Made by a program: the position numbers and the translations under genes. Source: an uncultured Candidatus Saccharibacteria bacterium (GTDB taxonomy: Bacteria; Patescibacteriota; CAZHWT01). From it: a DNA stretch of 56,801 nucleotides. The notes below the pieces were generated by a model. It was not told the origin of the DNA. It was given only the letters and a program-made list of their open reading frames with translations, and searched no databases. Each line of letters starts with the position of its first letter. The first letter of the stretch is position 1. Where the stretch lies: NCBI GenBank assembly GCA_964554805.1, contig CAZKPX010000004.1, positions 13,638 through 70,438 of the forward strand. The letters run 5' to 3'. This document shows, in pieces, positions 11,344 to 55,874 of the stretch.

Positions 11344-11373
11344 TATTGAAATTATTCTAAAGCACGAACAAAA

Positions 11374-12366: not shown

Positions 12367-12434
12367 TGCTTCACCGATAATCTGAAGTATGGTACTTTAA
12401 ATATGCTAATAAATTTACGCATCGTATAATCCGC

Positions 12435-13469: not shown

Positions 13470-13482
13470 TCCGCCCATTACG

Positions 13483-14757: not shown

Positions 14758-14768
14758 TATAGGAGAGC

Positions 14769-16079
14769 TTATAGGGTATTTGATTGATTTGCTTTGACTA
14801 TGGCTTGCCCTTGGTGTTTAAGCCAATAAGCGGTGCCCAAGCTTAGCCCAATCAAGACCCACCACAATTGCAGAATCCAGGTGTAGAAAAGACTATTATT
14901 TATCATGCTGGCTGGTATTAAGCCAAATAAAACTGCTACAACTGCTAATTGAGTGGCCTTTATACTCATTAATGTTTGATTATTGTGCTGGTTTTCTAAC
15001 AAGACTCGTCCGCTGGCATAGATAAGACTGCTATAAAATATTATAAAGAGCGTGAACCCAATTGCTCCTGTTGTAGCTAGCACAAACAGCCAGCTTGAAT
15101 CAGCGCCCGCTCCGGCGTTGCCGCTATCTTCTTGATTAACTATTCCATAGCGGTCCTGAGCATAGCGATAACTATTAAATCCTATGCCAAATGGTTGATT
15201 ATCCATGGCGATTGTCAGAGAGTTTTGCCACGAAGTAATGCGAATGGAAGAAGTGACATCGATCTGAACTCCGCTCATGACTCTTTCCTTAACGCGAGGA
15301 ACTGCAGTAAAGGCAATAATTCCTACAACAGCGGCTACTAATAGCAGCCAGCGCGCTTTGAAAAAGGCCACAACAGCCAAGCCAACCACCAGCATGACAT
15401 ATGCGCTCCTAGAGAATGTTAGAATGATGGCCAAGATGAGAATGCCAGCGATGAGACCGAATATAAAGCGCCGCTTCATGCTTGTGCTGTAGAGAAGAAA
15501 ACTTGTAGCAACAATAGCACCAATAGACAGATACGCGCCAGCATAATTAGGATCTAGCATAGCCGTAGCCAGTCGTCCAATATGAGGGTCCCAACCATAT
15601 TTGGTCAATTCCGCAAAATCTGGCAACACGTACAACTGAATAAAGCCACTTGCCGCCATTAATAGACTAGCCATCAAGAGCACCTTTAGCCAAAAGGCGA
15701 TTGAGCGCTGCAATTGCAGCGAGTTGGCCGAGTAAACCACCCCATCAAAAACAATCAAGGCAATGAATGCGTAAGCTGCGTAGCGAATCCAGTAGGACAA
15801 ACTGACAAGAACTTGACTATTGGATAACATATTGCTGCCAATCAACAAGCCCACTGGGGCCAGGGCCATAAAGATGGCCAAGACTGCCATGGGCCATGGT
15901 ATTATCCAAGTCTTGCGAATAATAAGCACATGGGCAAGGTATACTGCAACGATTCCAGCCATTAGTAAATCATTGGCATAGATAACTACCCCGTCTCCCC
16001 CACCGACGGGGATACGGTTAAGTTGTCCCAGACAGGCAGTTAGCAGCATTAAGACGGTCAGGATTACAGTTAGTTTCAT
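14769..16079 (-). CDS. O-antigen ligase/polymerase-like (Wzy_C type) polytopic membrane protein, paralogue of the neighbouring gene
   Basis: 436 aa, polytopic. FSRSAYVMLVVGLAV motif typical of the Wzy_C family. Confidence 0.65.
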   Translation of the reverse strand: MKLTVILTVLMLLTACLGQLNRIPVGGGDGVVIYANDLLMAGIVAVYLAHVLIIRKTWIIPWPMAVLAIFMALAPVGLLIGSNMLSNSQVLVSLSYWIRYAAYAFIALIVFDGVVYSANSLQLQRSIAFWLKVLLMASLLMAASGFIQLYVLPDFAELTKYGWDPHIGRLATAMLDPNYAGAYLSIGAIVATSFLLYSTSMKRRFIFGLIAGILILAIILTFSRSAYVMLVVGLAVVAFFKARWLLLVAAVVGIIAFTAVPRVKERVMSGVQIDVTSSIRITSWQNSLTIAMDNQPFGIGFNSYRYAQDRYGIVNQEDSGNAGAGADSSWLFVLATTGAIGFTLFIIFYSSLIYASGRVLLENQHNNQTLMSIKATQLAVVAVLFGLIPASMINNSLFYTWILQLWWVLIGLSLGTAYWLKHQGQAIVKANQSNTL

Positions 16080-23572: not shown

Positions 23573-24667
23573 TTATTCCTTATTAATTGGGTGCATAGCT
23601 ATGCTTTGGATGATGGCCAAGGCCAGAGCGCTCGTCAATAGCGAACTTCCTCCATAGCTAACAAAAGGGAGAGGTATTCCCGTAACGGGGGCTAAGCCAA
23701 TGTTCATGGCAATGTTGATGATTGCCTGGACTAGGATCATGAACGTTAGGCCGCTTAGCAGGATTATTGTCGGCTGATCTTTGGTGAACCAGATTAGCCG
23801 TAGCCCTCTATAGAAAATAATAGCATACAACGAAACAACGAACAGTCCACCCACTAGACCAAACTCTTCAGAGAGGCTAGCAAAAATAAAATCTGTTTGA
23901 TGCTCAGGGAGAAAGTTAAGATGACTCTGAGTGCCTTGCCCCCAGCCTTGGCCAATCAAACCGCCGGATTGCACAGCTATGACTGATTGAAGGACATTAT
24001 AACCAGAACCCAACGGATCGGCCGTCGGATTAAGAAACGTAAAAACGCGCTGTTGTTGATATGGCGCAAGAATCGACCAACCTATGATGGCAGCCAATCC
24101 TAAGCCGCAAAAGACAGCCGTTAAAGTTTTTTTACTGATGGGGCTCATCCATACCACGGCTAACCAGCCCACTAGCATAATAGTAGCAGTGCCAAAGTCT
24201 GGTTGTAGCAAAATGAGACCAATGGGAAGAGCCCCAATGACAGCATATAGGGGAAATAGGGACCAGCTCGACCAATGCTTATGGTGATGTAGGGTGTAGG
24301 CATACGCCAAGGTGCACACCATAAAAACTTTCATAAACTCGGATGGTTGCAACGAGAAAGCGCCCAGATCGAGCCAACTTACCGCACCTCGAGTTGCTTG
24401 TCCGAAGATTGCTAAGCCTATCAATAGGATTAATGTCGCAGAATATGCTAAAGGAGATGCCTTCCAATACCATGAAGGCTGTACCCAGCTGCCGGCAATG
24501 TACACTATTGCCCCTAAAAGGATGAAAAGTAGTTGATTGGTCAGCAGATTGTCTTGCTGACTAATGGCACTTGACGACAGCATGATCAAACTAATTGTCA
24601 TTAAGGCGATCACTGAGCCTGTTAACCACCAGTCATGCAGTTGCCACCACGCTTTTCTTGGGTTCAC
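23573..24667 (-). CDS. rodA: SEDS family protein (FtsW/RodA/SpoVE), outside dcw so RodA-like
   Basis: 364 aa, polytopic. QPSEFMKV, TDFIFA and PLPFVSYGGSS motifs. Confidence 0.8.
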   Translation of the reverse strand: MNPRKAWWQLHDWWLTGSVIALMTISLIMLSSSAISQQDNLLTNQLLFILLGAIVYIAGSWVQPSWYWKASPLAYSATLILLIGLAIFGQATRGAVSWLDLGAFSLQPSEFMKVFMVCTLAYAYTLHHHKHWSSWSLFPLYAVIGALPIGLILLQPDFGTATIMLVGWLAVVWMSPISKKTLTAVFCGLGLAAIIGWSILAPYQQQRVFTFLNPTADPLGSGYNVLQSVIAVQSGGLIGQGWGQGTQSHLNFLPEHQTDFIFASLSEEFGLVGGLFVVSLYAIIFYRGLRLIWFTKDQPTIILLSGLTFMILVQAIINIAMNIGLAPVTGIPLPFVSYGGSSLLTSALALAIIQSIAMHPINKE

Positions 24668-33725: not shown

Positions 33726-35066
33726 CTACCAGTAAACCGATGACCAGTTGAGACTTACACTGGAGAAGTGCGACTTGACCGGATCTGACCAGTTTGGACT
33801 GACAATATGCAGCTTAACGGCTGAAACATCTATCATAGCTAACTGTCCGGTAGATACTCGCCACGCACCTTGCTGGTAGCCTTTGGCGAAAACTGGTACT
33901 TGCTGCTGCTGAATATCCCAGCCTCCCCACAACCATTGGCCATCTACTGATAAACCTGTAAATCCTATTCGATAATCGGAGAGCCACACTAACTGACTAA
34001 GTGCTACTTGCTTTAACCATAACAGATCTGTTTTATATGGTATCTGGGTTAAAGACTGGTTATTGAGGTCAATATAGGCTAGGCCATGCTGATCTATGAT
34101 AGCTAGTTTTTGCTGATCAGGGGATAAAGCCATGTCAAAGGACTGGTAGGCAGCTACTGTTGATTCTTGTAGTAGGATGGGCCTGACTTCGGTAATTTCA
34201 TTGGACCTTAAGGATAATTTGGTTAGTATCTGCGCCGACTGGTTGTCAATTGATTTTGTTTTGACAAAAAATAGAGACTGTGACTGAGCCTGCCAAATCA
34301 GAGGGGCTTGGAGCTGTTGGTCAACTGAAGTGATCCCGGCCATAGCTAGCGGCTGAGCGGACTGACTGTCCAGATTATATATTTGAATAGAGGAATTGAG
34401 GACTGCTAAGCGGTTGTTGTCTAGCCAAACCAAGGCTTTGGCAATATTTTTAACCTCCAGATTGGTGTCGAGTCTGCGTTGGTTTGTTACATCAATTATC
34501 GTTAGGCGACCAAAGGGAAAGGCCTGTGGGGAAATGTCCGAGCTTAATCCTAATGACTGAGCGTATCCAGCAGGATTGTCGGTTAGAGCCTTGGCTTCTG
34601 AGTCGGTCAGATAGAGGGCTGCAATTTTAGTCTTATCCGGAGACCAATAGATTTGCGAAATAGGGCCATACCAAGGGTTGTCGGCTTCCAATATGGTTTT
34701 ATGCTGACCAGTTTGGGGATTGAGTAGCAGCATCGATCCATGCTTCACGCCTACCAACCAATCTTGATAATTTGTCGCCTGCTGCAATAGGCTGCCGAAT
34801 GTTGCACTAGCAACTTGCGGTGTAGGCTGTGCCTCAAATTGAGTCTTGGGAGGCTCAAGCTTGGTGCTGATAGTGTTGGATTGGCTTACTAAGACATAGC
34901 TACCAACAGCCGCCAGACCTAGCAATACCAGTAGCACTCCAGCAATAACTAGTGGCTTCTTCAAGCCTCTTTTGTTCGGGATAGTGGCAAAAATGCTGGC
35001 TGCTTGATGAGGGGCAGGCTGCCCTTTTGGAGTGTCTTGTTCGGTTACTTGGGATGAAAAATACAT
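33726..35066 (-). CDS. Bitopic membrane protein with an extracytoplasmic beta-propeller-like (PD40/TolB-like) domain
   Basis: 446 aa. Short cytoplasmic N-terminus and one TM (PLVIAGVLLVLLGLAAVGSYVLV). Beta-rich domain with WSPDKTKIA and SPDQQKLA repeats. Confidence 0.6.
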   Translation of the reverse strand: MYFSSQVTEQDTPKGQPAPHQAASIFATIPNKRGLKKPLVIAGVLLVLLGLAAVGSYVLVSQSNTISTKLEPPKTQFEAQPTPQVASATFGSLLQQATNYQDWLVGVKHGSMLLLNPQTGQHKTILEADNPWYGPISQIYWSPDKTKIAALYLTDSEAKALTDNPAGYAQSLGLSSDISPQAFPFGRLTIIDVTNQRRLDTNLEVKNIAKALVWLDNNRLAVLNSSIQIYNLDSQSAQPLAMAGITSVDQQLQAPLIWQAQSQSLFFVKTKSIDNQSAQILTKLSLRSNEITEVRPILLQESTVAAYQSFDMALSPDQQKLAIIDQHGLAYIDLNNQSLTQIPYKTDLLWLKQVALSQLVWLSDYRIGFTGLSVDGQWLWGGWDIQQQQVPVFAKGYQQGAWRVSTGQLAMIDVSAVKLHIVSPNWSDPVKSHFSSVSLNWSSVYW

Positions 35067-37483: not shown

Positions 37484-38647
37484 TTATGATACAGACCGGG
37501 CTTGGGCAAGACTAACCGTGATAGATGCTAAGACTTGATCTGCATCAAGCTTGACTAGCTGCTTAGCAGCATCCTTTTGCTGCTGAGTAGGTGGGTGCGC
37601 TAGCTGCTGTTCAATTGTATCGAATAATACTCTATCGGACAAAAGACTTTCTTTGACGATTGTGGCTGTCCCCGCCTCCACTAGCGCCTGAGCGTTTTTG
37701 GTCTGCTCATCATGTGTCACCCATGGAATAGGGATGCAGATGGCTGGCAGACCCCAATAGGCCAGCTCTAGGATCGTATTAGCGCCAGCCCGACATACCA
37801 CTAAGCTAGCTGCTTTATAGATATGACCGATTTGGCTGACTGCCAATTGCTGGAGCGGTAAGTAGTCTTGAGCTAATTTGCTTGGCAACCTTTTTTGCAA
37901 TTCTGTCAATCTTTCATAGTCAGCGAACTTTTGATTGGATCCCGTTTGATGAATAACTCTATACACCGTTAATAATTTTTCTAGATCCTGCTCCACTGCT
38001 AGGTTGATAACATGCGAACCAAGGCCACCGCCCGTAACATAAATAAGCGGCTTGGCGGACTTGCGTTGCAGCCAGCCAAGAACCGGATCGGATTTAAGAC
38101 CATCGCTGGTTGGATTGGCTACCTGCTGGTTGAGCGGATTACCTGTCAGTACGACTTTTTTAGCATTAAAATATGTCGCGGATTGAGGAAAAGTTATGGC
38201 AATGACATTGGCCATACGAGAGGCAATCTGATTGGCAAGTCCAACTGCGGCTGTTTGCTCATGAATAACAACCGGTATGCCTTGCATCCAAGCAGCCCAG
38301 ACAACAGGCAAGGAGACATAGCCACCAGTCGATAAAACTACCTGCGGCTTAAAATCCTTGACCACTTTGAATGCTTGAAAAATACCAGGTACGACACCCC
38401 ACAGTCGGGTTACTGTGGTCAACGACAAACCGTCTCTTTTTAGCTTGCCTGCAGAAATCGCAACAAAAGGAATATCAGTTGGCTGAACTAAGGATTGTTC
38501 AACCGATGGTCCGGTTGAGCCCTCCATGGTCAACGTGCCACCAACATACAATAGTTCCATGTCGGATTGTGCTTGCAACACTTTTGCCACTGCTAGGGCC
38601 GGCGAAACATGACCGCCCGATCCTCCGCCAGTAATCAGAATCTTCAT
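37484..38647 (-). CDS. murG: UDP-GlcNAc:lipid I GlcNAc transferase MurG
   Basis: 387 aa. N-terminal ITGGGSGGHVSPALAV, C-terminal CRAGANTILE. Confidence 0.92.
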   Translation of the reverse strand: MKILITGGGSGGHVSPALAVAKVLQAQSDMELLYVGGTLTMEGSTGPSVEQSLVQPTDIPFVAISAGKLKRDGLSLTTVTRLWGVVPGIFQAFKVVKDFKPQVVLSTGGYVSLPVVWAAWMQGIPVVIHEQTAAVGLANQIASRMANVIAITFPQSATYFNAKKVVLTGNPLNQQVANPTSDGLKSDPVLGWLQRKSAKPLIYVTGGGLGSHVINLAVEQDLEKLLTVYRVIHQTGSNQKFADYERLTELQKRLPSKLAQDYLPLQQLAVSQIGHIYKAASLVVCRAGANTILELAYWGLPAICIPIPWVTHDEQTKNAQALVEAGTATIVKESLLSDRVLFDTIEQQLAHPPTQQQKDAAKQLVKLDADQVLASITVSLAQARSVS

Positions 38648-40005
38648 ACCTGTAGTATAGCAGCTTGTTTAAAAACTTGCCCCCGGTGCTTATAATCTGA
38701 AAACATGTCAAAACTTTTTGCTCCTGGTGACAACAGGACTATGCCGGTAGAAGCGTGTTGCTGGAGTATTACTCTTGCTTTTGATACTGCTTTTGCTATA
38801 TCTGCTTGATCATAAACCATGGGGATAGTTATGCCGATAGTTTCGGCAGCTCCATGAATTGAGTCTGAATCTTGCCCCATAACAACAATGGCCTTGAGGT
38901 GTTGACATTGAGATAGATCTTTTAATACCGCAGCCCAATTTGCGTGACGATTCTGGCCACCCAGTAGAAGGACCACCGGCTTATCAAATGCCTGCACGGC
39001 TGCCAGGGTAGATTCGGGCGTGGTGGAAATAGAATCATCTATGTACTCAATTCCGTTAATTGATGCTACTGACTCTAAACGGTGTGGCAGTGGCCGATAT
39101 TGGCTAATAGCTTGGACAATGGTGCTGTCATTAACTTGATTTAAATGGGCTGCCATGGCTGCTGCTGCGATATTTTGTAGATTATGTTTACCGAGCAAGC
39201 TCATTTGCGGCAGAGCGATGCTGACTGATCGGTGTTTATTAGTAATCTCCAATGAATCGGCTGCATAGTGGATTCCTTGCTCTACGGCCTTGCCACTCAT
39301 GGCGAAGCGTTGGGCTGAAGTACTAACAATTTGACGGGTTAAAGAAAAGTCATTGTTGAATATAGCTATGTCGTCGATGGTTTGATGTTGAAATAGTTGA
39401 CTTTTGGCTTGCAAATAATTTGATAGTCGGCCATGCAGCTCTAGATGTTCGGGCACTATCATGAGACCAATCGCCATATGGGGAGAATACATAGCATCCC
39501 ATAATTGATAACTAGATAGTTCTGCGACAACAACATCTTGTGGCCCTACTTGGTCAATAATATCTAGGAATGGCACACCAATGTTGCCGGCCAAGTGCAC
39601 TCTTTTTCCTGACAACTTAAGCATGTCATGTAATAATGAGCTGGTTGTCCCCTTGCCTTTTGTACCAGTAATGCCAATCGTTTGAGCAGCGAATTGCTGG
39701 AGAAATAGATTAGTTTGGCTAACAATTTTTAGGGGGTCGATCCCTTGTAGCGCCGAATGATTTGGATTGAATGAAGGGGTGCGAAAGATTAAGTCAAAAT
39801 GATTTAAATCCAGCTGACCATACTCTCCAACCGTAACTTCAGGGATAGTTTGAGCTTCAACCCGCCTATCAAAAATTGTAATATCTTTAACATAATGTCG
39901 TTGAAGAAACTTAACTGTGGATTTTCCTTCTATACCGCACCCTAGCACAGCCACTTTTGGGAAATCATTTAGCAGAGAGATGTATGATTCGTTGCTTGGT
40001 TTCAC
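38644..40005 (-). CDS. murD: UDP-MurNAc-L-Ala:D-Glu ligase MurD
   Basis: GITGTKGKGTT P-loop and Mur ligase layout. The preferred start is GTG at 40003-40005: AAGGAG lies 5 nt upstream and GTGA overlaps the upstream stop. The ORF track starts at 40023. Confidence 0.88.
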   Translation of the reverse strand: MKPSNESYISLLNDFPKVAVLGCGIEGKSTVKFLQRHYVKDITIFDRRVEAQTIPEVTVGEYGQLDLNHFDLIFRTPSFNPNHSALQGIDPLKIVSQTNLFLQQFAAQTIGITGTKGKGTTSSLLHDMLKLSGKRVHLAGNIGVPFLDIIDQVGPQDVVVAELSSYQLWDAMYSPHMAIGLMIVPEHLELHGRLSNYLQAKSQLFQHQTIDDIAIFNNDFSLTRQIVSTSAQRFAMSGKAVEQGIHYAADSLEITNKHRSVSIALPQMSLLGKHNLQNIAAAAMAAHLNQVNDSTIVQAISQYRPLPHRLESVASINGIEYIDDSISTTPESTLAAVQAFDKPVVLLLGGQNRHANWAAVLKDLSQCQHLKAIVVMGQDSDSIHGAAETIGITIPMVYDQADIAKAVSKARVILQQHASTGIVLLSPGAKSFDMFSDYKHRGQVFKQAAILQV

Positions 40006-41414
40006 GATAGCTCCTTTGACCACTTCTGCTCTAGTAGATTTGTTAATCGTTGTGGCAGCTGATGGCTGTTAGCCACAGACATAGACAGGAGCACGTCGCC
40101 TGGTTGCAATTGCTCTGCTAGTCGATCAAGTGCTTGGTCAACATCCTCAACAACATGAATGTCTGCCGGACTGATTATTTGCCGAGCAATATCTGACGAA
40201 CTAATGTCGGCAGAGATTGACTCTTCGCGAGCCGCTTCAATTGGTAGTAATAAAATATGGTCAGCCGAGCTAAAAGCCGATGCATAATCCTGCAGCAATG
40301 CTTTGACGCGCGAGTAGGTGTGTGGTTGATAGCAAGCCCACATTGAACCATGTCGCCACTGCTGAACAAATCGTTGTTTGGCACCACTGATGGTGGCTTT
40401 GATCTCGCTGGGATGGTGAGCATAATCGTCGATAATCGTAATGTGGTTTACTTGGCCCGTTATGACAAATCGACGATCGGCTCCAGCAAAGGTCTGCAAA
40501 CCTTTGCTAAATGAGCTATCAGAAATCCCCAACAGATTGCAGACAATGTACGCTGCACTGACATTGAGCGTATTATGCTGTCCCGCCAGAGGGCTCTTTA
40601 TGTCGACATGCTGATGTATAGATTGGAGAGTAAAAGTAGTTTGGGGATGGTATTTTTGACTATTAATTTTCCAGTCAGACTCCCCTGTCTGCCCATACCA
40701 AATTATTCGATGGGGCTTCCCGGATAAGAGCTGAGGTAAGTATGGATCATCGGCGCAGGCAATGATTATTTTATCTGAAGGCATAGAGTCAACCAGCTCA
40801 TCAAAAGCCTTAATAACATGATCGAATGTCGGAAATAAGTCAGGATGATCCCATTCAAGAGAGGTCAGAATCAAAATATCAGGATGATAAAACATGAACT
40901 TAGATCGCCGATCAATTTGCGATGAGCTGTATTCATCCCCTTCGATAATTACAACCTGGCTATCTGACAATTTAACACTTCTGCCTAGATTTGCCCCCTT
41001 CATGCCGATAAGGTAATCAGGATTATAGCCCGCTTGATCCAATAGCCAGGCGATCAATGTAGTGGTGGTAGTCTTGCCGTGAGTCCCACTTACGACGATT
41101 CGTTTCTTGCGGGCGGTTAACTCCTCGACCAGCTGCGGAAATGATTTAATTTCTAGATGAAGTCGCTTTGCTTCGAGTAGCTCGATATTGTCGGCAGGTA
41201 TATCATTGGCTAAAACAACCATATCCTGATGTTTCAGATGTGACTTATCATATGTGGTATAAAACTCAATACCTGCCTCAATCAAATCGGTGCTAGCAGG
41301 CGGGTAGGCGTTAATGGCCACTCCCGACACTCGATGCCCCTCTCTAGCTAACTGCAGAGCAAGTCCGCTCATCACTTGGCCACATATGCCGATAAAATAG
41401 TATCCTTTAGTCAT
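40002..41414 (-). CDS. Active Mur ligase of the MurC/Mpl family with Mpl-like signatures
   Basis: 470 aa. IGICGQVMSGLA...NAYPPAS N-domain, SGTHGKTTTT P-loop, EGDEYSSSQIDRRSKF, LEWDHPDLF and DDYAHHP. Confidence 0.85.
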   Translation of the reverse strand: MTKGYYFIGICGQVMSGLALQLAREGHRVSGVAINAYPPASTDLIEAGIEFYTTYDKSHLKHQDMVVLANDIPADNIELLEAKRLHLEIKSFPQLVEELTARKKRIVVSGTHGKTTTTTLIAWLLDQAGYNPDYLIGMKGANLGRSVKLSDSQVVIIEGDEYSSSQIDRRSKFMFYHPDILILTSLEWDHPDLFPTFDHVIKAFDELVDSMPSDKIIIACADDPYLPQLLSGKPHRIIWYGQTGESDWKINSQKYHPQTTFTLQSIHQHVDIKSPLAGQHNTLNVSAAYIVCNLLGISDSSFSKGLQTFAGADRRFVITGQVNHITIIDDYAHHPSEIKATISGAKQRFVQQWRHGSMWACYQPHTYSRVKALLQDYASAFSSADHILLLPIEAAREESISADISSSDIARQIISPADIHVVEDVDQALDRLAEQLQPGDVLLSMSVANSHQLPQRLTNLLEQKWSKELS

Positions 41415-42673: not shown

Positions 42674-43684
42674 TTATAGCAAGGCTATCCACAAACCGAG
42701 AAAAGCGCTTAAGATGCCGAATAGCCAGAAGCGCATTGTAACTTTCGTTTCAGTCCATCCTTTGGCCTCAAAATGATGATGCAAAGGGGCTATGAGGAAG
42801 ACTTTTTTGCCACGGAACTTTTTGGAGGCCATTTGAATTGCTGATGAGGCGAGCTCAACCATAAAAACTGCTCCGATAAATGGCAGCGCGAAGACATTTT
42901 GGCTCATTAAAGCAATGACTGCCAAGGCGGCGCCCAGAGCTAGTGCTCCAGTATCGCCCATAATGAATCGGGCAGGGTATATATTGAAGTATAGGAAAGC
43001 CAATACTGAGCCAATAAGGATAGCAATAAATAAAACTACATCAGCCGTTGAAAAGGCTGCGGCTAGATAGAAGAACGCTGCCAAGGCGATTAAAAGTAGG
43101 CCGCCGGACAGGCCATCCAAGCCATCTGTAATGTTAAACGCATTTGACATGGTGGCAATAACAAAGGCGGCGAAGGGGATATACCACCAGCCCAGCACAA
43201 TCTCCGTATCGAAGGGCAGTCTAATACTATCAAAACCCATATAGGTGTAGAGTAAGTACCCAACTACTAGACCAAGCAGCAGTTGGACAATCAACTTACT
43301 TCGAGCTCTCATGCCCCATAAACCTGAAGCCGGCGCCTCAAGGAATTTTCGGAGATCGTCATAGAAGCCCAGTGCCCCAAAGGTAATGAGAGTTATGGCC
43401 AGAATGCCGATTGTCCAGTTAACTTTGAAACTCGTGAATTGGTAAACGGCAAAACCTAGCGCAAGTACAGTAAAGATAATCAATACTCCACCCGCAGACG
43501 GCGTGCCAATTTTCGACTCATGGAGCTGGTCTATTAGATCTACTTGCTTGACTTGTCCTTTAATATATTCCCGCTGTCTCTGGAATTTTAATTTGTACAG
43601 AAGGTTGATAAAAGGCACAGCCAAGGCGGCGGCGATACCGGTTGATAGAAGAAGGGTGAGGAAGACTTTAGACATATAGGCCAA
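42674..43684 (-). CDS. mraY: Phospho-MurNAc-pentapeptide translocase MraY
   Basis: 336 aa. NAFNITDGLDGL and APLHHHFE motifs. Confidence 0.95.
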   Translation of the reverse strand: MAYMSKVFLTLLLSTGIAAALAVPFINLLYKLKFQRQREYIKGQVKQVDLIDQLHESKIGTPSAGGVLIIFTVLALGFAVYQFTSFKVNWTIGILAITLITFGALGFYDDLRKFLEAPASGLWGMRARSKLIVQLLLGLVVGYLLYTYMGFDSIRLPFDTEIVLGWWYIPFAAFVIATMSNAFNITDGLDGLSGGLLLIALAAFFYLAAAFSTADVVLFIAILIGSVLAFLYFNIYPARFIMGDTGALALGAALAVIALMSQNVFALPFIGAVFMVELASSAIQMASKKFRGKKVFLIAPLHHHFEAKGWTETKVTMRFWLFGILSAFLGLWIALL

Positions 43685-43709: not shown

Positions 43710-44708
43710 TTAGTGTTTGGGAGGATCAGGCTTACGATAGGCTTCGAGAGCAAGGGTGGCAGCGGCTTGAGCTGGGCTCATAGTCGGCTTGATGATTCGG
43801 GTTTGAGGGTTGATTCTTCTTAGTTCGGCTTCGAATCGTCGATAGAGGTATCGACTATTGAGAATGGTGCTGCCAATAATAACTAGTGAGACTTTGGCGT
43901 CTCGCCAATCCAGCTTGGTCATGACAGCATCTACCATTTTCAATAGTTCGTTGACTGAGTGATTGAGTATGTGTTGAGCAACATGATCACCATCTTCGGC
44001 TACATCTGAGGCTAAGATAGCCAAGCTGGCTATCGAGGCTTTATCGGTATATTTCCGATAAATTACCTGATACATCTCATTCAGGGTATCTACCTGGAGG
44101 TGCTTAAAAACTGCTTTGGTTAATTTGGTGGCATCTGATCGCCCATCGAGATCTGAAGTAACAGCTCGCAGAATGCGCAATCCTATATCATAGCCGCTCC
44201 CCTGATCCGACATAATATAATCCAGTCCGCCCGCTTGGACTATTTGCCCACTTTCGGAGCGTGCCAGACAATTAGATCCTGTTCCGGATAGTAAAATGAT
44301 GCCGACGCTATCCTCTACTCCGGCCCTCAAGGCGATCAAGCTGTCATTAACTACTGTCAGTTGGCCGATCATGGAGCTAAGAGAGCTGAGCTTGATGGCT
44401 TTTTCAAGGACTTGGTGATCATGATCAAAATTGTTTCCGGCTAGACCGAAGACTGCTTGATCAAATACCAAGGGCGGGGGAACTTTCAGCTCTGCTATGG
44501 CTTCTTGAACTGCCATTTCCAAATTGGCAATGACTGCCTCTAGACCAATCGTATGATAATTAGCGCCGACAGGAAATGTTTGTTGATAGATGGATTGCCC
44601 TTGCTGGTCAACGATGGCTACGGTAGTATTGCTGGCTCCGCCATCTATGCCAATAAATAGTTGTTCGTGGATTAGTCTTGATTTATTAGTCATATGTATT
44701 CCCATCAT
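43710..44708 (-). CDS. BadF/BadG/BcrA/BcrD-type ATPase, N-acetylglucosamine-kinase-like sugar kinase
   Basis: 332 aa. IGIDGGASNT, SGTGSN and GGLDYIMSDQGSGYDIG motifs are intact. Alternative ATG at 44693. Confidence 0.75.
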   Translation of the reverse strand: MMGIHMTNKSRLIHEQLFIGIDGGASNTTVAIVDQQGQSIYQQTFPVGANYHTIGLEAVIANLEMAVQEAIAELKVPPPLVFDQAVFGLAGNNFDHDHQVLEKAIKLSSLSSMIGQLTVVNDSLIALRAGVEDSVGIILLSGTGSNCLARSESGQIVQAGGLDYIMSDQGSGYDIGLRILRAVTSDLDGRSDATKLTKAVFKHLQVDTLNEMYQVIYRKYTDKASIASLAILASDVAEDGDHVAQHILNHSVNELLKMVDAVMTKLDWRDAKVSLVIIGSTILNSRYLYRRFEAELRRINPQTRIIKPTMSPAQAAATLALEAYRKPDPPKH

Positions 44709-44713
44709 GTAAT

Positions 44714-45967
44714 CTAGTCATGTCTGTCTATTTTTGCCCCCAATTTAATCAATCGATCTGCTAGCGATTCAAATCGCCCATCAATGGCGGCCATGTTGTG
44801 GAGCGTGCTTTGCTCATTGGCTGCTAACGATAGCAACAATCCAACAATACCGCCTGCAAAATCATTGACTGTATACTCAGCCGATTTAATCTTAGTTGGA
44901 CCAAATAAATGAAGGTCTTGATCTACTAAATAGCCGTCAACCAAAAACGCTTTAAGGCACGATAAAGCCTGCGCCAATTCATCTTCATGGTCGGAGCTAA
45001 AAATGCACTCACCCTGACTGAGACTAGATAGCGGTGTGAATAAAAGTAGCCAATCTTCGCTTAAGCCTGGGAAGGGCTTGGCAACTAATTGAATCGGCTG
45101 CCATTCCTGGTCGTGGGTATCTCGCCAGAAACGAATACTGCGACTATCAACTGTATATCGACCAGTCATCTGCTGGATTTTGGCTAAGAACGGCATGATA
45201 AGGGCCGATTTTACCCCTTCTATTTGAACATCACCGGCAGTCATATAGGCAGCAGTGGCCAAAAAAGCTGCCTCATAGCGATCTGGGACGATGGCGTGGG
45301 TGGTACCGGCCATTTCTGATTGCCCTTGAATTTGAAGTCTTGATTCATCTACTCGGTCGATAACGCCATTCATATGCCTTAAACACTGCATCACATCTTC
45401 GACTTCTGGGTTAATGACTGCGCCATCAATCAAGGTTGTGCCATCCGCGGTGGCGGCTAGAATGATAGTGGTGAGGGTTTGATCAGAACCCATACTTTGC
45501 AAATCCAGAGATGCGGCATGGAGATGGTTAAGAGATATTACTGTATGAGATTGTTTGGTAATTTGAGCGCCAAATTGTTCCAAAATTGGCCATAAATAGT
45601 TAAAATCCGACTGGAGAGGCGGCGGAATATCAATCGTGAGCTGTCGACACCGTACCAGGATGGCGGCCAGGAGGCTAGGCGGCCAGCCGACGACATCCCG
45701 AGCATCAACAATGGCGCTCGGCGATGCAACTTGGGCTGCATGGACAGTTATTTCATGACTATGCGTCCAATCTATGGCTATGCCAAATCCCCGCAACTCA
45801 TTCATTAGTGTATCTAAATCTTTCAGGTGAGGAACATTTGTAATAGTGACCTTGTCGGTAGTGAGCAAGGAGGCTGCCAGCACTCCGACGGCTGCTAGTG
45901 GCGAGCCTTTTACAGAAATAATGCCGCGGAGCGCAGAGCCACCTTTGACTTTATAGGTGATACTCAT
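44714..45967 (-). CDS. MurA/EPSP-synthase-fold protein, divergent, predicted catalytically inactive
   Basis: 417 aa. The N-terminus YKVKGGSALRGIISVKGSPLAAVGVLAASLL...ITNVPHLKDLDTLMNELRGFG parallels MurA. C-terminus IDGRFESLADRLIKLGAKI. Catalytic positions are substituted (see findings). Confidence 0.7.
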   Translation of the reverse strand: MSITYKVKGGSALRGIISVKGSPLAAVGVLAASLLTTDKVTITNVPHLKDLDTLMNELRGFGIAIDWTHSHEITVHAAQVASPSAIVDARDVVGWPPSLLAAILVRCRQLTIDIPPPLQSDFNYLWPILEQFGAQITKQSHTVISLNHLHAASLDLQSMGSDQTLTTIILAATADGTTLIDGAVINPEVEDVMQCLRHMNGVIDRVDESRLQIQGQSEMAGTTHAIVPDRYEAAFLATAAYMTAGDVQIEGVKSALIMPFLAKIQQMTGRYTVDSRSIRFWRDTHDQEWQPIQLVAKPFPGLSEDWLLLFTPLSSLSQGECIFSSDHEDELAQALSCLKAFLVDGYLVDQDLHLFGPTKIKSAEYTVNDFAGGIVGLLLSLAANEQSTLHNMAAIDGRFESLADRLIKLGAKIDRHD

Positions 45968-47352
45968 GGCTTCGCCGACCTTTTCTGAGCCTGAATCGCA
46001 GCTTGAATGTCGCCTACTATTGGGAGACGATTTTTTGCATGAATGTAATAGATAAGATCGTTAGGCGAGACATGCTTGGCAATAAAACGGGGCAGTTCGT
46101 CGACGGGTATAGAGTAATGTATGGGTTGAGGTGGTGATGCGACTGAAGATGACCGAGATGTGTCCGGTGTATCGATTCGAATTATAATATCTGTCTCATT
46201 TAAGGCCTTTTTAATAACCGATGGGGACAGGTGGCTATACTCATCTTGGCTGATTAACAGCCACAGCCTGGCATCTGTTTTTGGAAGCAAAAATTGTTGC
46301 CTAACTCGATTAATATGTAACTCTAGGTCGCTAGACCACGGCAGGATAGATTCAATAATGTGGATGTCTTGGACCGTGGCTTGCAATGTATCCCAGGTAA
46401 GAAGGCCATTGCTGTTGCCGATTTCGGTTAGAGCTTGCGACATATCCACTTCCAGAGCATGCGCGCAGGCTAGCGTAGCCATAACTGCCGCTACCCCCTG
46501 CTGGCCAATAAATTGACTGGTTAATAATTCCAATGGTTTGGCCTGGAAGTCTGCGCCAAAGGTACTGTTTTGGGTTGTATATTTAATCTTGGTAGCTCGC
46601 CAATCAGCGGCTGAGGTTTGGCCATAGGTGCTGTATTTGAGATTAACCTGTTTGACCAGACGGAGAGATTGTTTATCTTGATCATGGAGAATGACCTGCA
46701 CTGTCGAGGCTGACTGACTATCTGCCATGTGTTTTAGGAGATGCAGCAGGTCCTTGTAATATGTCGATGATAGCTTGCGCGATGGCTCGTGAGCCAGGAT
46801 CACTATGCTCGGACTGAGATATAGCCACTCAGCGGCAGCATCTAGGCAAGAAGCTGGTTGCCAATCGGTGTCGATGACAAGTGTTTTTTTGGCAGCATAA
46901 TGCACCGCAGAGGGGTGCGACCAATGGTTGGTTGTAGCTAGGACTTGATGCGAAATAATATCAGCCGAGTTTTTGGTAGATTGGAGACTGCTGGCTACCA
47001 ATGCTGCTGTGAGAGGCGAGCCTATGACGACAACCTGCTGCTGCTTGGCTGCTAACTGTTGAATGAGCTGAGCGACCGAAACTACCTCCAGTTTCAACTT
47101 CTGAGCTGTCCGTAATTCGGGATTTTGTTTGGCTATCTGAGGACCAACTACAATCAAGCTATCAGGGTTAATATGCTGAGACTGGTATCGACTGTAGCTA
47201 TGGATGCCTGCTTGGTTGAGCTGCTCGTCAAGTGGTGGGGGTAGCTGGTCAGCTGAGCCAGAGACGGCAAAACCGAGCTGCTTGGTCGCCACAGCTAAGC
47301 CTGCCATGATGGGTTGATCAAGGCCAAGAAAATAGAGATGCTGTTTGATCAT
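45964..47352 (-). CDS. Mpl/MurC-like Mur ligase paralogue lacking the P-loop and other catalytic motifs
   Basis: 462 aa. N-domain YFLGLDQPIMAGLAVATKQLGFAVSGSADQLPPPL parallels the adjacent active ligase. The P-loop position reads VVVIGSPLTAAL. ATGA overlap with the downstream MurA-like gene. Confidence 0.7.
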   Translation of the reverse strand: MIKQHLYFLGLDQPIMAGLAVATKQLGFAVSGSADQLPPPLDEQLNQAGIHSYSRYQSQHINPDSLIVVGPQIAKQNPELRTAQKLKLEVVSVAQLIQQLAAKQQQVVVIGSPLTAALVASSLQSTKNSADIISHQVLATTNHWSHPSAVHYAAKKTLVIDTDWQPASCLDAAAEWLYLSPSIVILAHEPSRKLSSTYYKDLLHLLKHMADSQSASTVQVILHDQDKQSLRLVKQVNLKYSTYGQTSAADWRATKIKYTTQNSTFGADFQAKPLELLTSQFIGQQGVAAVMATLACAHALEVDMSQALTEIGNSNGLLTWDTLQATVQDIHIIESILPWSSDLELHINRVRQQFLLPKTDARLWLLISQDEYSHLSPSVIKKALNETDIIIRIDTPDTSRSSSVASPPQPIHYSIPVDELPRFIAKHVSPNDLIYYIHAKNRLPIVGDIQAAIQAQKRSAKP

Positions 47353-47358
47353 ATGATC

Positions 47359-47367
47359 AGTATAGCA
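47359..47367 (-). promoter_or_regulatory. Extended -10 element (TGCTATACT) placing a predicted TSS on the ATG of the ligase paralogue (leaderless candidate)
   Basis: Minus strand reads GCTTGCTATACTGATCATATG. There are 6 nt between the -10 hexamer and the ATG at 47350-47352, and no SD is possible. Confidence 0.4.
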
Positions 47368-47472
47368 AGCTTGGGAGCCCGCTGTCTTCTGTCTTAGGTT
47401 TGACCTCTACTCGACTGCTGCATTGAGACTGGGAGGTTTGAGGCTGGAGCTGGAGTGATTAATGTTTAGTTC

Positions 47473-47788
47473 ACCGTCATTGCCACTCCGCCAGCTGGCG
47501 GAGTGGCAATCTAGCTATGACTGATATATTTTTCTCAAGTTACATTCGGCCAAAAGCCATTGTTTTTGTATGTCATTTTTTCACCTCAAATAAACATTTT
47601 TTACTAACCTTTGTGTCTATGGGTAGTATTGAATTTGCTTAGGGGCTCTCCCCGTCAAGCTAGGAGACCAGTATTTGAGGTGAAAGAAATGAATACAAGG
47701 GTTTTTATTTAAATGCAGAAGACAGTTGCAGCTACTTTGTATTTTTAACTTTAATCTTTGCCTTTTGACTTTTGATTTTTGCCTTTCC
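47473..47788 (+). repeat. Composite intergenic repeat unit, copy A (module M1, spacer, module M2)
   Basis: M1 (47473-47597) starts with a 32-nt perfect palindrome (47479-47510), followed by GGCAATCTAGCT...TTCGGCCAAAAGCCATTGTTTTTGTATGTCATTTTTTCAC.TCAAATAAACAT. M2 (47646-47788) runs CTCTCCCCGTCA.GCTAGGAGACCAGTATTTGA... and ends in the TTTGCC low-complexity tail. Matches 52862-53173 by eye along its full length. Confidence 0.85.
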
Positions 47789-47908
47789 AATACCTCATCA
47801 AGTTGACTAGATTGCCGCTCCGCTTGTTGGGGATGGCAATCTAGCTGTGTCTGATACTTTTTCTCAAGTTGCATTCGGCCAAAAGCCATTGTTTTTGTAT
47901 GTCATTTG
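47789..47908 (+). repeat. Second, partial M1 module (degenerate palindrome plus conserved 3' part)
   Basis: ATTGCCGCTCCGCTTGTTGGGGATGGCAATCTAGCTGTGTCTGATACTTTTTCTCAAGTTGCATTCGGCCAAAAGCCATTGTTTTTGTATGTCATTTG. Confidence 0.8.
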
Positions 47909-48016
47909 TTTCTTGCCACACTGGTGCAGCCAGCTCGGCTGGCGGATATTGAGACAGGAGACGCGAGACGGAAGACACGGGACAAAGCATGCCACATATC
48001 AACAGCTATGAATGCG

Positions 48017-49801
48017 CTACGGAGCCTGCTGCTGGGCGATGCCGTAGTGCTGGAAAATGTCCTTAGCCATGTCCATCCACATCGGTACAACTGTTTCTGC
48101 AGAGTTGTCGATGCGGGGTTTGTCGAGTTTGGCTAACATAATAAATCTTGGATTAACGGCTGGGGCAAACCCAACAAAGGTTGTAATAGTATTGTCCTGA
48201 TCATAACCGCCTTCGACAGCAATCTGAGAGGTGCTCGTTTTGCCAGCAATATCATAGCCTTGAAGAGCGAGGCGTCGAAATTCACCATTTTTGACGACCT
48301 GCTTGAGCATTTCTACAACTGTTTTAGTTGTTTGAGTGCTGTAAACCTGACTGATCTGCTCTGGCTGGACCGTGGTGATTTGGTCTCCTTGCTGCACGGA
48401 CTCGATGATAGTTGGTTTCATCTGCTTGCCTTGATTGGCGATGGTGGCCATCATTTGGAGAAGCTGTATGGGAGTTACTGAAATCCCCTGACCAAATGAG
48501 GCTGTAGCCAGCGTAACCGGCAACCAGTCTTTGGCAGGAGGGATATATCCTTGTGTTTCACCCTGAAGAGTGATGCCAGTCACTCGGTCAAACCCAACCC
48601 TATGGATGGCTTCTAGGAATTTGTCTCGACCTATTTTGAGGGCAAATTGAGCAGCGCCAGTATTATCCGAGGTTTCAAGCATGTGTGTGACGGTGCTATT
48701 GGGGCCTGAATATTTCTTATTAGCGGTTGTAATGGTGTGATCGCCAACTTTGTATGGGGCGCTCAGGTAGGTAGAATTAGGATTAAAGATGTTGCTATCT
48801 ATGCCGGTGGCTACGGTAAACGACTTTATGACACTGCCAGGCTCATAGGTATCAGAAATAATACTATTTTTAAACAATTTGGCATCATCTACTGCTGCAA
48901 TGTTAGACGGATCAAAGGTTGGATAGTTGGCCATTGCTAGTATCTTGCCAGTCTGAGGTTCCATCAAGATGAACGAGCCAGCCTCGGCAGAATTCTTTTC
49001 TACACCTGACTTGAGTTTTGCTTCCAGCAGATATTGTAATCCCCGATTGATGGTAAGCGTAATAGTTTTGCCATTGACAGCTGGGGTAGACGCGTAATTG
49101 CCGACTGGAATTGGATTGCCCTGTGGATCGCGGTCATAGACCGTTTTGCCGTCGCGTCCTCTTAGGTCATGATCAAAATACCCCTCAATTCCATAATATC
49201 CTTGATCCTGCCCTTGATCATTTTGACTGACAAAGCCCAAGATCTGGCTAGCTAATGAGCCTTCAGGATAGTAGCGCTTTTGTTCTGATTGAAAATCTAT
49301 GCCCTTTAACTGCTTGGCCTTTATTTGTTCAATTTTGACTGGATCAATTTTGCGGGCAATGGCCACCCATTTACGATCTTTTTGTTCAAGCTGTTGTTTT
49401 ATTGTGGCGACAGTGTATTTGGCAGGAGTCGGTATGGGGGTTGGAGAGTTGGGAGTCGTACTTGCGGCATCGGTTTGGCTCGAGTCGGCATTTAGAATGT
49501 CAGCGAGATCTGTGGCTGTTTGCTGGCTGTTTTCAATACGTTGAGGTTCAGCGTAAATAAGATAGGCAGGTTGAGTGCTGGCTAGCTCGAAGCCATCGGC
49601 CGATTTGATAGTGCCTCTGATAGCAGGGATTTCTCGACTGATACCATACTGCTGCTCGGCTTTGGCTAAGAACTGAGGGTGCATTACTACCTGGATATAG
49701 GCAAGTCGGACTAGCAAGGCCAAGCCTATGGCAGCAAATACGCCTAAGATAACAGCATAGCGGGTTTTGTTTGGATTATTGTTTGCTCTTGCCCTGGCCA
49801 T
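48017..49801 (-). CDS. ftsI: Class B penicillin-binding protein / transpeptidase FtsI
   Basis: 594 aa. N-terminal TM, SVIK (SxxK), SDN (SxN), and a third motif reading KTS instead of KTG. Confidence 0.9.
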   Translation of the reverse strand: MARARANNNPNKTRYAVILGVFAAIGLALLVRLAYIQVVMHPQFLAKAEQQYGISREIPAIRGTIKSADGFELASTQPAYLIYAEPQRIENSQQTATDLADILNADSSQTDAASTTPNSPTPIPTPAKYTVATIKQQLEQKDRKWVAIARKIDPVKIEQIKAKQLKGIDFQSEQKRYYPEGSLASQILGFVSQNDQGQDQGYYGIEGYFDHDLRGRDGKTVYDRDPQGNPIPVGNYASTPAVNGKTITLTINRGLQYLLEAKLKSGVEKNSAEAGSFILMEPQTGKILAMANYPTFDPSNIAAVDDAKLFKNSIISDTYEPGSVIKSFTVATGIDSNIFNPNSTYLSAPYKVGDHTITTANKKYSGPNSTVTHMLETSDNTGAAQFALKIGRDKFLEAIHRVGFDRVTGITLQGETQGYIPPAKDWLPVTLATASFGQGISVTPIQLLQMMATIANQGKQMKPTIIESVQQGDQITTVQPEQISQVYSTQTTKTVVEMLKQVVKNGEFRRLALQGYDIAGKTSTSQIAVEGGYDQDNTITTFVGFAPAVNPRFIMLAKLDKPRIDNSAETVVPMWMDMAKDIFQHYGIAQQQAP

Positions 49802-52861: not shown

Positions 52862-53173
52862 CGTCATTGCCATCCCCCAGCTGGCAGAGCGGCAATCTAG
52901 CTGTGGCTGATACTTTTTCTCAAATTGCATTCGGCCAAAAGCCATTGTTTTTGTATGTCATTTTTTCACATCAAATAAACATGACTTACTTGTCTTTGTA
53001 AGTATGGACGAGGATTTTTTTGTTTTATTACTCTCCCCCGTCAGGCTAGGAGACCAGTATTTGATACGAAAGAAATGAATACAGGGTTTTAATTAAATGC
53101 AGAAGACAATTGCGATTACTTTGTATTTTTGCCTTTAATTTTTGCCTTTTGATTTTTGGTTTTTGCCTTTTGA
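52862..53173 (+). repeat. Composite intergenic repeat unit, copy B (M1, spacer, M2)
   Basis: Collinear with 47473-47788 in the same orientation. Ends 7 nt from the glyQS stop. Confidence 0.85.
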
Positions 53174-54577: not shown

Positions 54578-54755
54578 ATTTTGAATACCCGTTTTAAGTT
54601 TTTGGGTGTTACGTTTTTGAGAAATACTACCAAATTAACTAAACTTAAATTATGGGCTTGATTATACCAGAATTGGAAGGATGATTACAGAAGGATTTAA
54701 GCTGTCATCTTGACTAAAGGGCTATAAGAATGGCAGGTTCTGGTATACTTAGGAT

Positions 54756-55874
54756 ATGAAGGTTGCCTTGGTGCACGATTATTTAAATCAATATGGTGGA
54801 GCCGAACGAGTCATGGAAGCGCTCCATGAGTTATTTCCCGAAGCTCCGATTTATACTTCGATCTATGATGCAGCGGCCATGAAAGAGCTGGGATTCAAAG
54901 AGGCGGGCAAAGATATTCGAACATCCTTTATGGAGCGGTTGCCGCTTCGACATAAGCTGCCTCGATATTATTTCACCCTCTTTTATCCGTTCGTGTTTAG
55001 CAAATTTGATATGTCTGCCTACGATGTGATTATTTCCGATGCTTCGTATGCGGCAAAATACGTGAACAAGCGACCAGGAGCGATCCATATTTGTTATTGT
55101 CATACTCCGCCGCGCTTTTTATACGGTTATGATACCGATTCGTCGGCCAAGATGAACTGGCTTGAAAAACAGCTTTCTAGCATCTGGAAAGTGTATCTCA
55201 AATGGCTAGACCAGCATAAAGCCAAGGGCGTTGACGTGTGGATCTCTAACTCCCAATCAATACGGCAGAAGGTCTATCAAGCATATGGGGTTCAATCGGA
55301 GGTGGTCTATCCTCCTGTAGATTTGAATCGTTTCAAAGACCTCGCAACCACCGATAAGGGTTACTTTTTTGTGGTTAGCCGCCTTGGTGAGTATAAACGG
55401 GTTGATTTGATCGTCAAGGCATTTAATCAGCTGGGATGGCCACTTAAGGTAGTTGGTCGAGGGCCACAAAAAGAATACCTTATGTCTATTGCCAAAGATA
55501 ACGTTCATATCATGGAAGCCTTGCCGGATGAAGAAGTGGCTGAGCTGTACGCAAACTGCCGAGCTATGGTCTTGGCTTCCTATGAAGATGCCGGAATTAC
55601 GCCGCTAGAAGCCATGGCATGCGGGAAGCCGGTGGTGGCTTTGGGTCAAGGGGGGTACCTCGAGACTATCGTTGATGGCAAGACTGGTGTCTTTTTTGCT
55701 GAGCAGACTGTCGAAAGCCTTGTTGAAGCTTTAGAGCGTTTTTCGACCATGTCATTTAAACCGGACGATTGTAGAAAGCAGTCGGCATTATTCGGGCCTG
55801 ATTCTTTTAAACAGAAAATTATGGAGATTTATACTCGTACGATAGACACTATAGCAAAAGGAGCAACGTCATGA
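54756..55874 (+). CDS. Glycosyltransferase, GT4 family
   Basis: 372 aa. MKVALVHDYLNQYGGAERV N-terminus and EDAGITPLEAMACGKPVVA motif. Confidence 0.85.
   Translation: MKVALVHDYLNQYGGAERVMEALHELFPEAPIYTSIYDAAAMKELGFKEAGKDIRTSFMERLPLRHKLPRYYFTLFYPFVFSKFDMSAYDVIISDASYAAKYVNKRPGAIHICYCHTPPRFLYGYDTDSSAKMNWLEKQLSSIWKVYLKWLDQHKAKGVDVWISNSQSIRQKVYQAYGVQSEVVYPPVDLNRFKDLATTDKGYFFVVSRLGEYKRVDLIVKAFNQLGWPLKVVGRGPQKEYLMSIAKDNVHIMEALPDEEVAELYANCRAMVLASYEDAGITPLEAMACGKPVVALGQGGYLETIVDGKTGVFFAEQTVESLVEALERFSTMSFKPDDCRKQSALFGPDSFKQKIMEIYTRTIDTIAKGATS

Follow-up and report, generated by a model that had tools for sequence, protein, structure and literature searches.

The 56.8-kb stretch of Candidatus Saccharibacteria DNA analysed here (the window) carries a division and cell wall (dcw) gene cluster in which three genes, called X1, X2 and X3, are situated between ftsI and mraY. 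X1 (45964..47352, minus strand) encodes a putative MurC-derived pseudo-ligase of 462 amino acids, X2 (44714..45967, minus strand) encodes a MurA-derived protein of 417 amino acids that is predicted to be non-catalytic, and X3 (43710..44708, minus strand) encodes a predicted MurK/NagK-type amino-sugar kinase of the BadF family (ASKHA). As judged from their sequences, X1 and X2 are conserved pseudoenzymes, catalytically dead and under purifying selection, and X3 looks like an active MurK-type 6-kinase for N-acetylmuramic acid (MurNAc) and N-acetylglucosamine (GlcNAc). All three are functional dcw genes. The explanation that we favour, for which we would claim not quite an even chance, is that salvage of amino sugars has taken over from the MurA step, and that the dead enzymes have been kept as non-catalytic partners.

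X2 is matched end to end (residues 7-404) by the EPSP_synthase profile PF00275 (E = 7.5e-31), and scores below the curated cutoffs of TIGR01072 (murA; 204.7 vs 392.7) and NF006873 (216.6 vs 297). The AlphaFold2 model of X2 has a predicted local distance difference test score (pLDDT) of 93.0 and a predicted template modelling score (pTM) of 0.91, and Foldseek aligns it to many MurA structures with template modelling (TM) scores of 0.88-0.92. The top match is PDB 9a7b, a model of a MurA2-MurA1 heterodimer, and 5vm7 (a MurA-A2 complex) is also among the matches. X2 shares with MurA the two-domain inside-out alpha/beta barrel fold of the EPSP synthase superfamily and the position downstream of ftsI in the dcw cluster, but differs from it in that the catalytic residues and those for phosphoenolpyruvate (PEP) and uridine diphosphate (UDP)-GlcNAc are gone, and in forming a separate small family. 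Among 5.8 billion proteins this family comprises about seven clusters at 90% identity (41-52%), followed by a gap down to 25%, which is the level of real MurA.

At the positions of Escherichia coli MurA, K22 is replaced by P, N23 by L and R91 by W in X2; neither R331 nor R371 survives, and the counterpart of R397 is shifted by one residue. The loop that contains Cys115 and R120 in MurA (LPGGCxIGxRP) has given way to a shorter, variable sequence in every member of the family, and the basic phosphate-binding residues of MurA are nearly all gone. D305 is retained in six members, and is S in the X2-like protein of L005 (the Saccharibacteria metagenome-assembled genome (MAG) CAZHWT01). This most divergent member also lacks R232 and the displaced Arg (R398); thus, there is no common catalytic set across the family. 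The functional roles of K22, N23, R91, Cys115, R120, D305, R331, R371 and R397 are taken by us to be those of the E. coli and Enterobacter cloacae enzymes. The initial reading of the window, made from the sequence only, had held that X2 keeps the layout of MurA and lacks its catalytic residues, and the profiles, the residue-by-residue alignment and the structure model all confirm this. It had also allowed that the catalytic residues could be present but shifted, which applies to R397 only: K22, N23, R91, the Cys loop, R331 and R371 are gone.

The X2 family has signatures of its own, VKGSPLA, DWT[HD]xHE, GW[SP]P and DWLxLF, of which the first two are invariant; DWT[HD]xHE is a new polar motif that is kept even in L005. 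Of twelve sites in the former MurA cleft, which were chosen by prior knowledge of the enzyme, six are invariant with new residues (P23, L24, W95, D229, R230 and D305-W306), against a background of 22% (p ~0.03).

In X1, Pfam finds the N-terminal domain of the Mur ligases only, Mur_ligase_M being undetected, and the scores for TIGR01082 (murC; 74.6 vs cutoff 335.1) and TIGR01081 (Mpl; 53.9 vs 388.7) are below the cutoffs. The AlphaFold2 model (pLDDT 89.6, pTM 0.89) has the three-domain architecture of a Mur ligase, with a TM score of 0.75 to the MurC of Haemophilus influenzae (1gqy, 1p3d), and Mpl is also among the matches. X1 resembles MurC and Mpl in its three-domain architecture, its length and its recognisable N-terminal domain, and it occupies the murC position of sister lineages. 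In contrast to MurC and Mpl, the P-loop GTHGKTTT has become GSPLT by a three-residue deletion, which is common to the relatives P0065 and P0123-P0126, and all ATP, Mg and substrate motifs are lost: in an alignment to intact MurC, none of EGDEY, DHPD, HN, RRF, DDYAH and PHTYSR is preserved. Where MurC has its glycine-rich UDP loop, GIxGxxMSG, X1 has the family-specific GL[DE]xPxM[AT]G, and the X1 family has the invariant motifs AQLIQQL and YY[KR]xLQHL. The absence of the ribose-binding Asp of the "GSD" motif was rejected as evidence on X1, as the working MurC of the window also lacks it. Profile scores, motif alignment and structure model therefore agree with the initial description of X1 as a protein with the MurC layout and without a P-loop.

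The distribution of constraint along X1 also differs from that of a ligase. Mean identity within the X1 family falls from 49.5% in the N-terminal domain to 33.2% in the middle domain and 22.6% in the C-terminal domain, whereas intact MurC is flat at 36-37%. From these values, constraint appears to be relaxed on the former ATPase and amino-acid-binding parts and kept on the N-terminal domain. An exhaustive search of 1.84 billion representative sequences, with a profile, recovered no more than four to five relatives of the X1 type, four of them being other representatives of the family; a word-based homologue search with X1 alone returned the self-match only. The best match of X1 outside its own family is P0067 (1.9e-39), the positional MurC of the clade of L004 (the Saccharibacteria MAG CAZQWH01), followed at a distance by the MurC of its own genome (2.9e-20), and in a rough neighbour-joining tree X1 is a single long branch beside the group of Saccharibacteria MurC. 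By its sequence affinities, X1 is a descendant of the Saccharibacteria MurC lineage.

Both genes are intact in distant relatives. X1 is a full-length open reading frame (ORF) of ~460 codons in at least five lineages (the window, L001, L003, L114 and L115), and X2 is a full-length ORF of 417 codons in at least nine (the same set together with L002, L004, L005, L076 and P0004-P0007). The identity of X1 and X2 orthologues across lineages is 30-52%, and all indels preserve the frame. L001, a contig of 55 kb that was assembled by Logan from run DRR438448, is the sole long locus of orthologous genes, and between it and the window synonymous sites are saturated in every gene (proportion of synonymous differences, pS, 0.73-0.88). 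The proportion of nonsynonymous differences (pN) was accordingly compared across genes against the saturated pS, instead of the usual rate ratio dN/dS. The values of pN are 0.49 for ftsQ, 0.46 for X1, 0.43 for the gene in the ftsA-ftsZ spacer, 0.33 for X2, 0.31 for rsmH, 0.30 for murG and 0.29 for X3. Thus, although X1 has only 36% identity to its L001 counterpart and most neighbouring genes have 60-90%, it evolves as fast as ftsQ and as the conserved gene between ftsA and ftsZ. The initial reading had named absent or frameshifted orthologues in relatives as the mark of simple decay; the orthologues found are full length, with in-frame indels only, and X1 and X2 are conserved, not decaying.

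X3 is matched by PF01869 (BcrAD_BadFG; E = 2.6e-32), and its best solved relative is 8ZO3, which was deposited as a MurNAc/GlcNAc kinase (E = 1e-38). All five orthologues share, without any change, the motifs DGGAS, VxND (which holds the N-D catalytic pair), GTGSNC and DxGSGYDIG. These matches and motifs bear out its first description as a BadF/NagK-type kinase with intact motifs, and point to an active MurK-type MurNAc/GlcNAc 6-kinase. Against the NCBIfam equivalog model of NagK it scores 89 bits (cutoff 370). The start codon may be a few codons 3' of the first ATG. The MurK proteins of Clostridium acetobutylicum (PDB 8ZO3) and Tannerella forsythia share with X3 the ASKHA phosphate motifs and the catalytic Asp, and the dual-specificity clostridial MurK has N before the catalytic D, the same as in X3. 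In the MurK of T. forsythia, the residues for MurNAc specificity are T94 and S133-P134-L135 (PMC10465942). X3 differs in its location, as it lies in the dcw operon beside a dead MurA and not in a MurNAc catabolic (murQ) cluster.

The arrangement of these genes in relatives gives an order of events. A scan with one genome per species found the X2 family in MAGs of Candidatus Saccharibacteria, namely L004 and L005, where identity to X2 is 46% and 34%, respectively, and a scan of JGI metagenomes added one short contig, L076. The locus of L001 has the order mraZ-rsmH-ftsL-ftsI-X1-X2-X3-mraY-ftsW-murG-ftsQ-ftsA-(homologue of the 446-amino-acid gene)-ftsZ. L003, L114 and L115 have X1-X2, L003 having X3 and mraY in addition. 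The order is pgeF-murC(intact)-X2-X3-mraY-ftsW in L004, and ftsI-(murE-like)-pgeF-murC(intact)-(X2-like)-X3-mraY-murD-ftsW-murG in L005. A more distant Saccharibacterium, L015, has ftsI, a gene for 388 amino acids and a canonical MurA, in which K22, N23 and the Cys loop are present. The X1-X2-X3 triad thus recurs in L001 and L003, between ftsI (in L001) and mraY, which is the synteny that the first reading had proposed to test. Two other parts of that reading were revised. The place between ftsI and mraY had been called the murE-murF slot, whereas relatives have (murE-)pgeF-murC-X2-X3-mraY; because the sister lineages L004 and L005 have an intact murC there, X1 holds the ancestral place of murC. 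X1 and X2 had been regarded as the core pair, whereas the conserved core is X2 and X3, with X1 confined to a sub-lineage.

Like the live murA of L015, X2 is a dcw gene that comes after ftsI, and X3 was not found at the L015 locus (21 kb examined). From these gene orders we infer that X2 and X3 are the older, always-paired module and that X1 is a later arrival, restricted to the sub-lineage of the window, L001, L003, L114 and L115. The inferred series is therefore stepwise: from a live MurA, to a dead MurA with a kinase beside a live MurC, to a MurC that is dead too. Both murE and pgeF have disappeared from this place in the X1 sub-lineage, L005 having a murE-like gene together with pgeF, and L004 having pgeF. 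The pgeF/yfiH gene (Cu-oxidase_4 family) is directly 5' of the intact murC at 125-859 in L004 and at 7663-8397 in L005; PgeF/YfiH is a peptidoglycan-editing factor for UDP-MurNAc-peptide precursors, acting on the first amino-acid position (PMC8844914, PMC12280929). Two further observations concern these loci. In L015, the canonical MurA lies between two Pfam-negative ORFs, at 8746-9912 (388 amino acids) and 11325-12101 (258 amino acids), and the latter stands where the clade of the window has X3. In L001, mraY-ftsW-murG (12312-15731) has no murC or murD between, although X1 is present.

In the window, the dcw cluster is on the minus strand, from 51525 down to 32348, in the order mraZ-rsmH-ftsL-ftsI-(664-bp spacer)-X1-X2-X3-mraY-ftsW-murC-murD-murG-ftsQ-ftsA-(446-amino-acid gene)-ftsZ. 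The 5' neighbour of the X block is ftsI (48017..49801, minus strand; Pfam), and mraY (42674..43684, minus strand; profile matches) is directly 3' of X3. X1 and X2 overlap by 4 nt, the gap between X2 and X3 is 5 nt and that between X3 and mraY is 25 nt; recomputation gave the same gene order and the same junctions as had first been described. A working murC-murD pair is located two genes downstream of X3, past mraY and ftsW. This murC (40002..41414, minus strand) has every motif intact, scores 348.8 bits with TIGR01082 (cutoff 335.1), and is 44% identical to the intact murC that occupies the X1 position in L005; murD (38644..40023, minus strand) scores 315.5 bits with TIGR01087 (cutoff 211.95). 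No murE, murF, murB, ddl or canonical murA was found within the window by profile scans and a protein-to-DNA search. Thus, the initial list of missing genes holds for these five, but not for murC, of which a bona fide copy is present at 40002-41414.

The spacer between ftsI and X1 (47353..48016) is 664 bp in length. A dispersed repeat of ~80 nt is present in it twice, along with a palindrome of 32 nt. Copies of this repeat (~50-80 nt, 96-98% identical) are located at 47504-47581 and 47834-47910 in the spacer, and at 52917-52963 between recO and proS. One copy abuts a perfect 32-nt palindrome (47479-47510). The chance expectation for such copies is none, and the repeat may be a miniature mobile element or resemble a repetitive extragenic palindromic element. 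The spacer was considered as a murE/pgeF pseudogene, and a tblastn search with the murE-like and PgeF proteins of L005 gave no match there. An ORF of 90 amino acids (47617-47889) has sub-threshold Pfam matches only, overlaps the repeats and is probably spurious. No regulatory RNA was found in the spacer, a scan of the window at the Rfam gathering thresholds giving three tRNAs only.

A promoter-like site (AAGACA-18-TATACT with TG upstream; 47359..47388, minus strand) precedes X1, its -10 element ending 6 nt before the ATG. The same arrangement, TGCTATACT-N6-ATG, is found at X1 (47350-47367) and at murG (38645-38662), and with one mismatch at a glycosyltransferase gene that starts at 54756 (54741-54758). 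The pattern TG[CG]TATACT-N6-ATG occurs three times in all, compared with 0.37 expected, each time exactly at an annotated start codon, and Shine-Dalgarno sequences are weak or absent across the whole cluster. This suggests that the TG[CG]TATACT sites are extended -10 promoters of leaderless mRNAs, including an internal promoter of murG within the end of murD. By these consensus matches, a leaderless transcript probably begins with X1, the probable unit being X1 to murD. Both the repeat block and the extended -10 in front of X1 that had been noted at first are real, and the latter is also present at the two other gene starts.

Several genes outside the X block were recorded in the course of the analysis. 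The gene between ftsA and ftsZ (33726..35066, minus strand) encodes 446 amino acids without a Pfam match and had been called a propeller in the initial reading. L001 and L005 have a homologue at the corresponding place, with 37% and 40% identity, respectively, so that the division cluster of this lineage includes an uncharacterised gene specific to it. A second protein of the shape, elongation, division and sporulation (SEDS) type (RodA/FtsW family, 364 amino acids) is encoded at 23573-24667 on the minus strand; because this gene is not part of the dcw cluster, there are two SEDS polymerases in a genome whose gene set is otherwise reduced. An ORF of 152 amino acids without a Pfam match (7052-7510, minus strand) is wedged between gatA and gatB, and is called as a gene, again Pfam-negative, on L112, a contig from another run that carries proteins identical to those of the window. 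Short Logan contigs (runs SRR16798008 and SRR16798009) encode proteins identical to those at the ends of the window. A look-up of X2 in the contig index gave no record.

Taking these data together, the favoured explanation would be as follows. X2 would no longer carry out the MurA reaction in this lineage. X3 would phosphorylate scavenged GlcNAc and/or MurNAc, and would feed the precursor pathway of the wall at least partly; the source of the amino sugars could plausibly be the wall of the host. The dead MurA and the dead MurC would be kept for a non-catalytic role, the likeliest being that of stoichiometric partners, as scaffold or as regulator, of those cytoplasmic Mur enzymes that remain, of the kinase or of MraY. 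At the place of X1, the positional ligase lost its ATPase in the X1 sub-lineage. A role as partners fits because of the position of the genes in the operon, the 4-nt and 5-nt junctions and the probable shared leaderless transcript, and a regulatory or scaffolding role of X1 and X2 is the most plausible reading. The more specific proposal, made at first, that X1 and X2 bind UDP-GlcNAc and UDP-MurNAc through the ancestral contacts is unsupported at the level of residues, because most of the residues that bind UDP-GlcNAc, PEP and UDP-MurNAc are gone: the phosphate and substrate residues of MurA and the UDP loop of MurC have been replaced. It had also been stated that no system of this composition was known. 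No published account was found: the literature yielded no description of a dead MurA or MurC, nor of the murA/murB content of Saccharibacteria.

Four points weigh against this explanation. Firstly, the gene absences cover the 56.8-kb window, and a canonical murA, murB, murE, murF or ddl may lie elsewhere in the genome, in which case the MurA step would not have been abandoned. Secondly, there is no mutase or uridylyltransferase in the window, and the product of a 6-kinase (MurNAc-6-phosphate or GlcNAc-6-phosphate) needs both to reach UDP-sugars. Thirdly, the invariant residues in the cleft of X2 hint that the cleft still matters, which fits ligand binding better than a pure scaffold. Fourthly, the input alignments for the structure models of X1 and X2 consisted mostly of true MurC and MurA, so that the models are biased towards the fold of the parent enzymes.

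The third of these points leads to a serious rival, namely neo-functionalisation, which we regard as possible but rather unlikely. X2, and perhaps the N-terminal domain of X1, would have a remodelled pocket for a new ligand or reaction (candidates being MurNAc-6-phosphate, GlcNAc-6-phosphate, a muropeptide or a host-derived precursor), and X1-X2-X3 would be a salvage pathway rather than a scaffold. The new invariant residues at half of the former cleft positions, the DWT[HD]xHE motif that persists in L005, the constant adjacency of X2 to a sugar kinase gene, and the fact that the N-terminal (UDP-binding) domain of X1 is the best conserved and has a loop of its own, all speak for such a remodelling. 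They have to be weighed against the near-complete loss of the basic phosphate-binding residues from X2, the lack of a family-wide catalytic set that follows from the sequence of L005, and the lack of any nucleotide-binding loop in X1; no known chemistry suggests itself.

A bolder form of the favoured explanation is that the clade has abandoned the de novo synthesis of UDP-MurNAc altogether and builds its wall from amino sugars or parts of muropeptides of the host, via the MurK-type 6-kinase. The dead MurA and MurC would then be obligatory, non-catalytic members of a Mur "metabolon" from which MraY receives its precursors. This would imply that MurB is possibly lacking too, and would take in the absence of murE and pgeF from the operon of the X1 sub-lineage. 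To our knowledge, no anabolic route that starts with a MurK-type 6-kinase has been described, and we consider this form unlikely.

It is slightly less likely still that X1 and X2 are regulatory paralogues only, with normal murA, murB, murE, murF and ddl elsewhere in the genome, in which case they would tune the stability or activity of the real enzymes, as is reported for the MurA paralogue MurZ/MurA2 of Firmicutes, and there would be no dependence on salvage. A working murC does coexist with X1 in the window, pairs of MurA paralogues are known, of which a heterodimer model is available (PDB 9a7b, the top structural match of X2), and the dcw clusters of Saccharibacteria are often split, as in L015, such that the absent genes may lie elsewhere. 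However, the position of X2 downstream of ftsI, like that of murA in L015, suggests that X2 descended from the gene in situ rather than being an additional copy. A genome scan of two sister MAGs, which was pattern-based and therefore weak, gave the X2-type locus only. In addition, the kinase accompanies the dead MurA, whereas the 21 kb of the L015 locus, with its live MurA, gave no match to it.

The two remaining alternatives have little to commend them. That X1 and X2 are functionless leftovers of murC and murA in slow decay, not yet disrupted, would be in keeping with the fast evolution of X1 relative to most of its neighbours and with its barely conserved C-terminal domain; nevertheless, simple decay is disfavoured and very unlikely, because the reading frames are intact in at least five (X1) and at least nine (X2) lineages despite synonymous saturation, indels are in frame only, each family has new invariant motifs of its own, and pN is well under pS and in the range of dcw genes, X1 evolving at the rate of ftsQ. 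That the dead MurA and MurC are decoys, which soak up inhibitors of the real enzymes, such as phage lysis proteins of the kind of Qbeta A2, is the least credible of all, as there is a general precedent only (MurA is targeted by a phage lysis protein, and PDB 5vm7 is among the structural matches of X2), window scans showed no defence or phage genes nearby, the surface loop bearing Cys115 is deleted in X2, and the genes are stable inside the core dcw operon across diverged lineages.

The explanation by salvage and non-catalytic partners can be compared with known systems. Tannerella forsythia has no MurNAc biosynthesis (it is without murA/murB), needs external MurNAc and has MurK kinases (PMC10465942, PMC5790795). 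If X2 is the only MurA homologue of its genome, the likeness would lie in a host-associated life, in having given up de novo MurNAc and in a MurK-type kinase; the difference is that murA is simply absent from T. forsythia, whereas the lineage of the window retains a dead MurA under selection. T. forsythia feeds wall synthesis via AmgK/MurU, and no genes for AmgK or MurU were seen in the window. In Firmicutes there are pairs of MurA paralogues (MurA/MurZ, MurAA/MurAB), in which the second protein influences the level or activity of the first. Both members of these pairs are catalytically competent, whereas X2 is predicted to be dead. A Mur ligase fold without ligase function may also have a counterpart in plants: the structural matches of X1 include chain Q of PDB 8r6s, which belongs to the plastid-encoded RNA polymerase. 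We take this chain to be the plant MurE-like PAP11, in which the Mur ligase fold has a structural, non-ligase role in seed plants. PAP11 is a eukaryotic protein of MurE descent that belongs to a transcription complex and has no link to dcw, whereas X1 is MurC-derived and lies in the dcw operon.

Few bacterial enzymes are as conserved, or as much targeted by drugs, as MurA and the Mur ligases. A conserved dead MurA and a conserved dead MurC in the core operon would show that these folds have a value beyond catalysis, for example in the assembly of a complex or in regulation at MraY, and this bears on the long-debated view of the cytoplasmic Mur enzymes as a complex. Pseudoenzymes derived from metabolic enzymes are known already; what is unusual here is their placement in the dcw cluster, in a rare lineage of Saccharibacteria, and they come with a clear stepwise series, which is an unusually clean natural experiment on the birth of pseudoenzymes. 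Saccharibacteria are tiny, parasitic obligate epibionts with a minimal metabolism. The combination of a dead MurA with a MurNAc/GlcNAc kinase gives the testable hypothesis that some Saccharibacteria rely on the wall sugars of their hosts for their own wall, and suggests that the first step of wall synthesis was given up for sugar salvage, while the dead enzymes took on another role.

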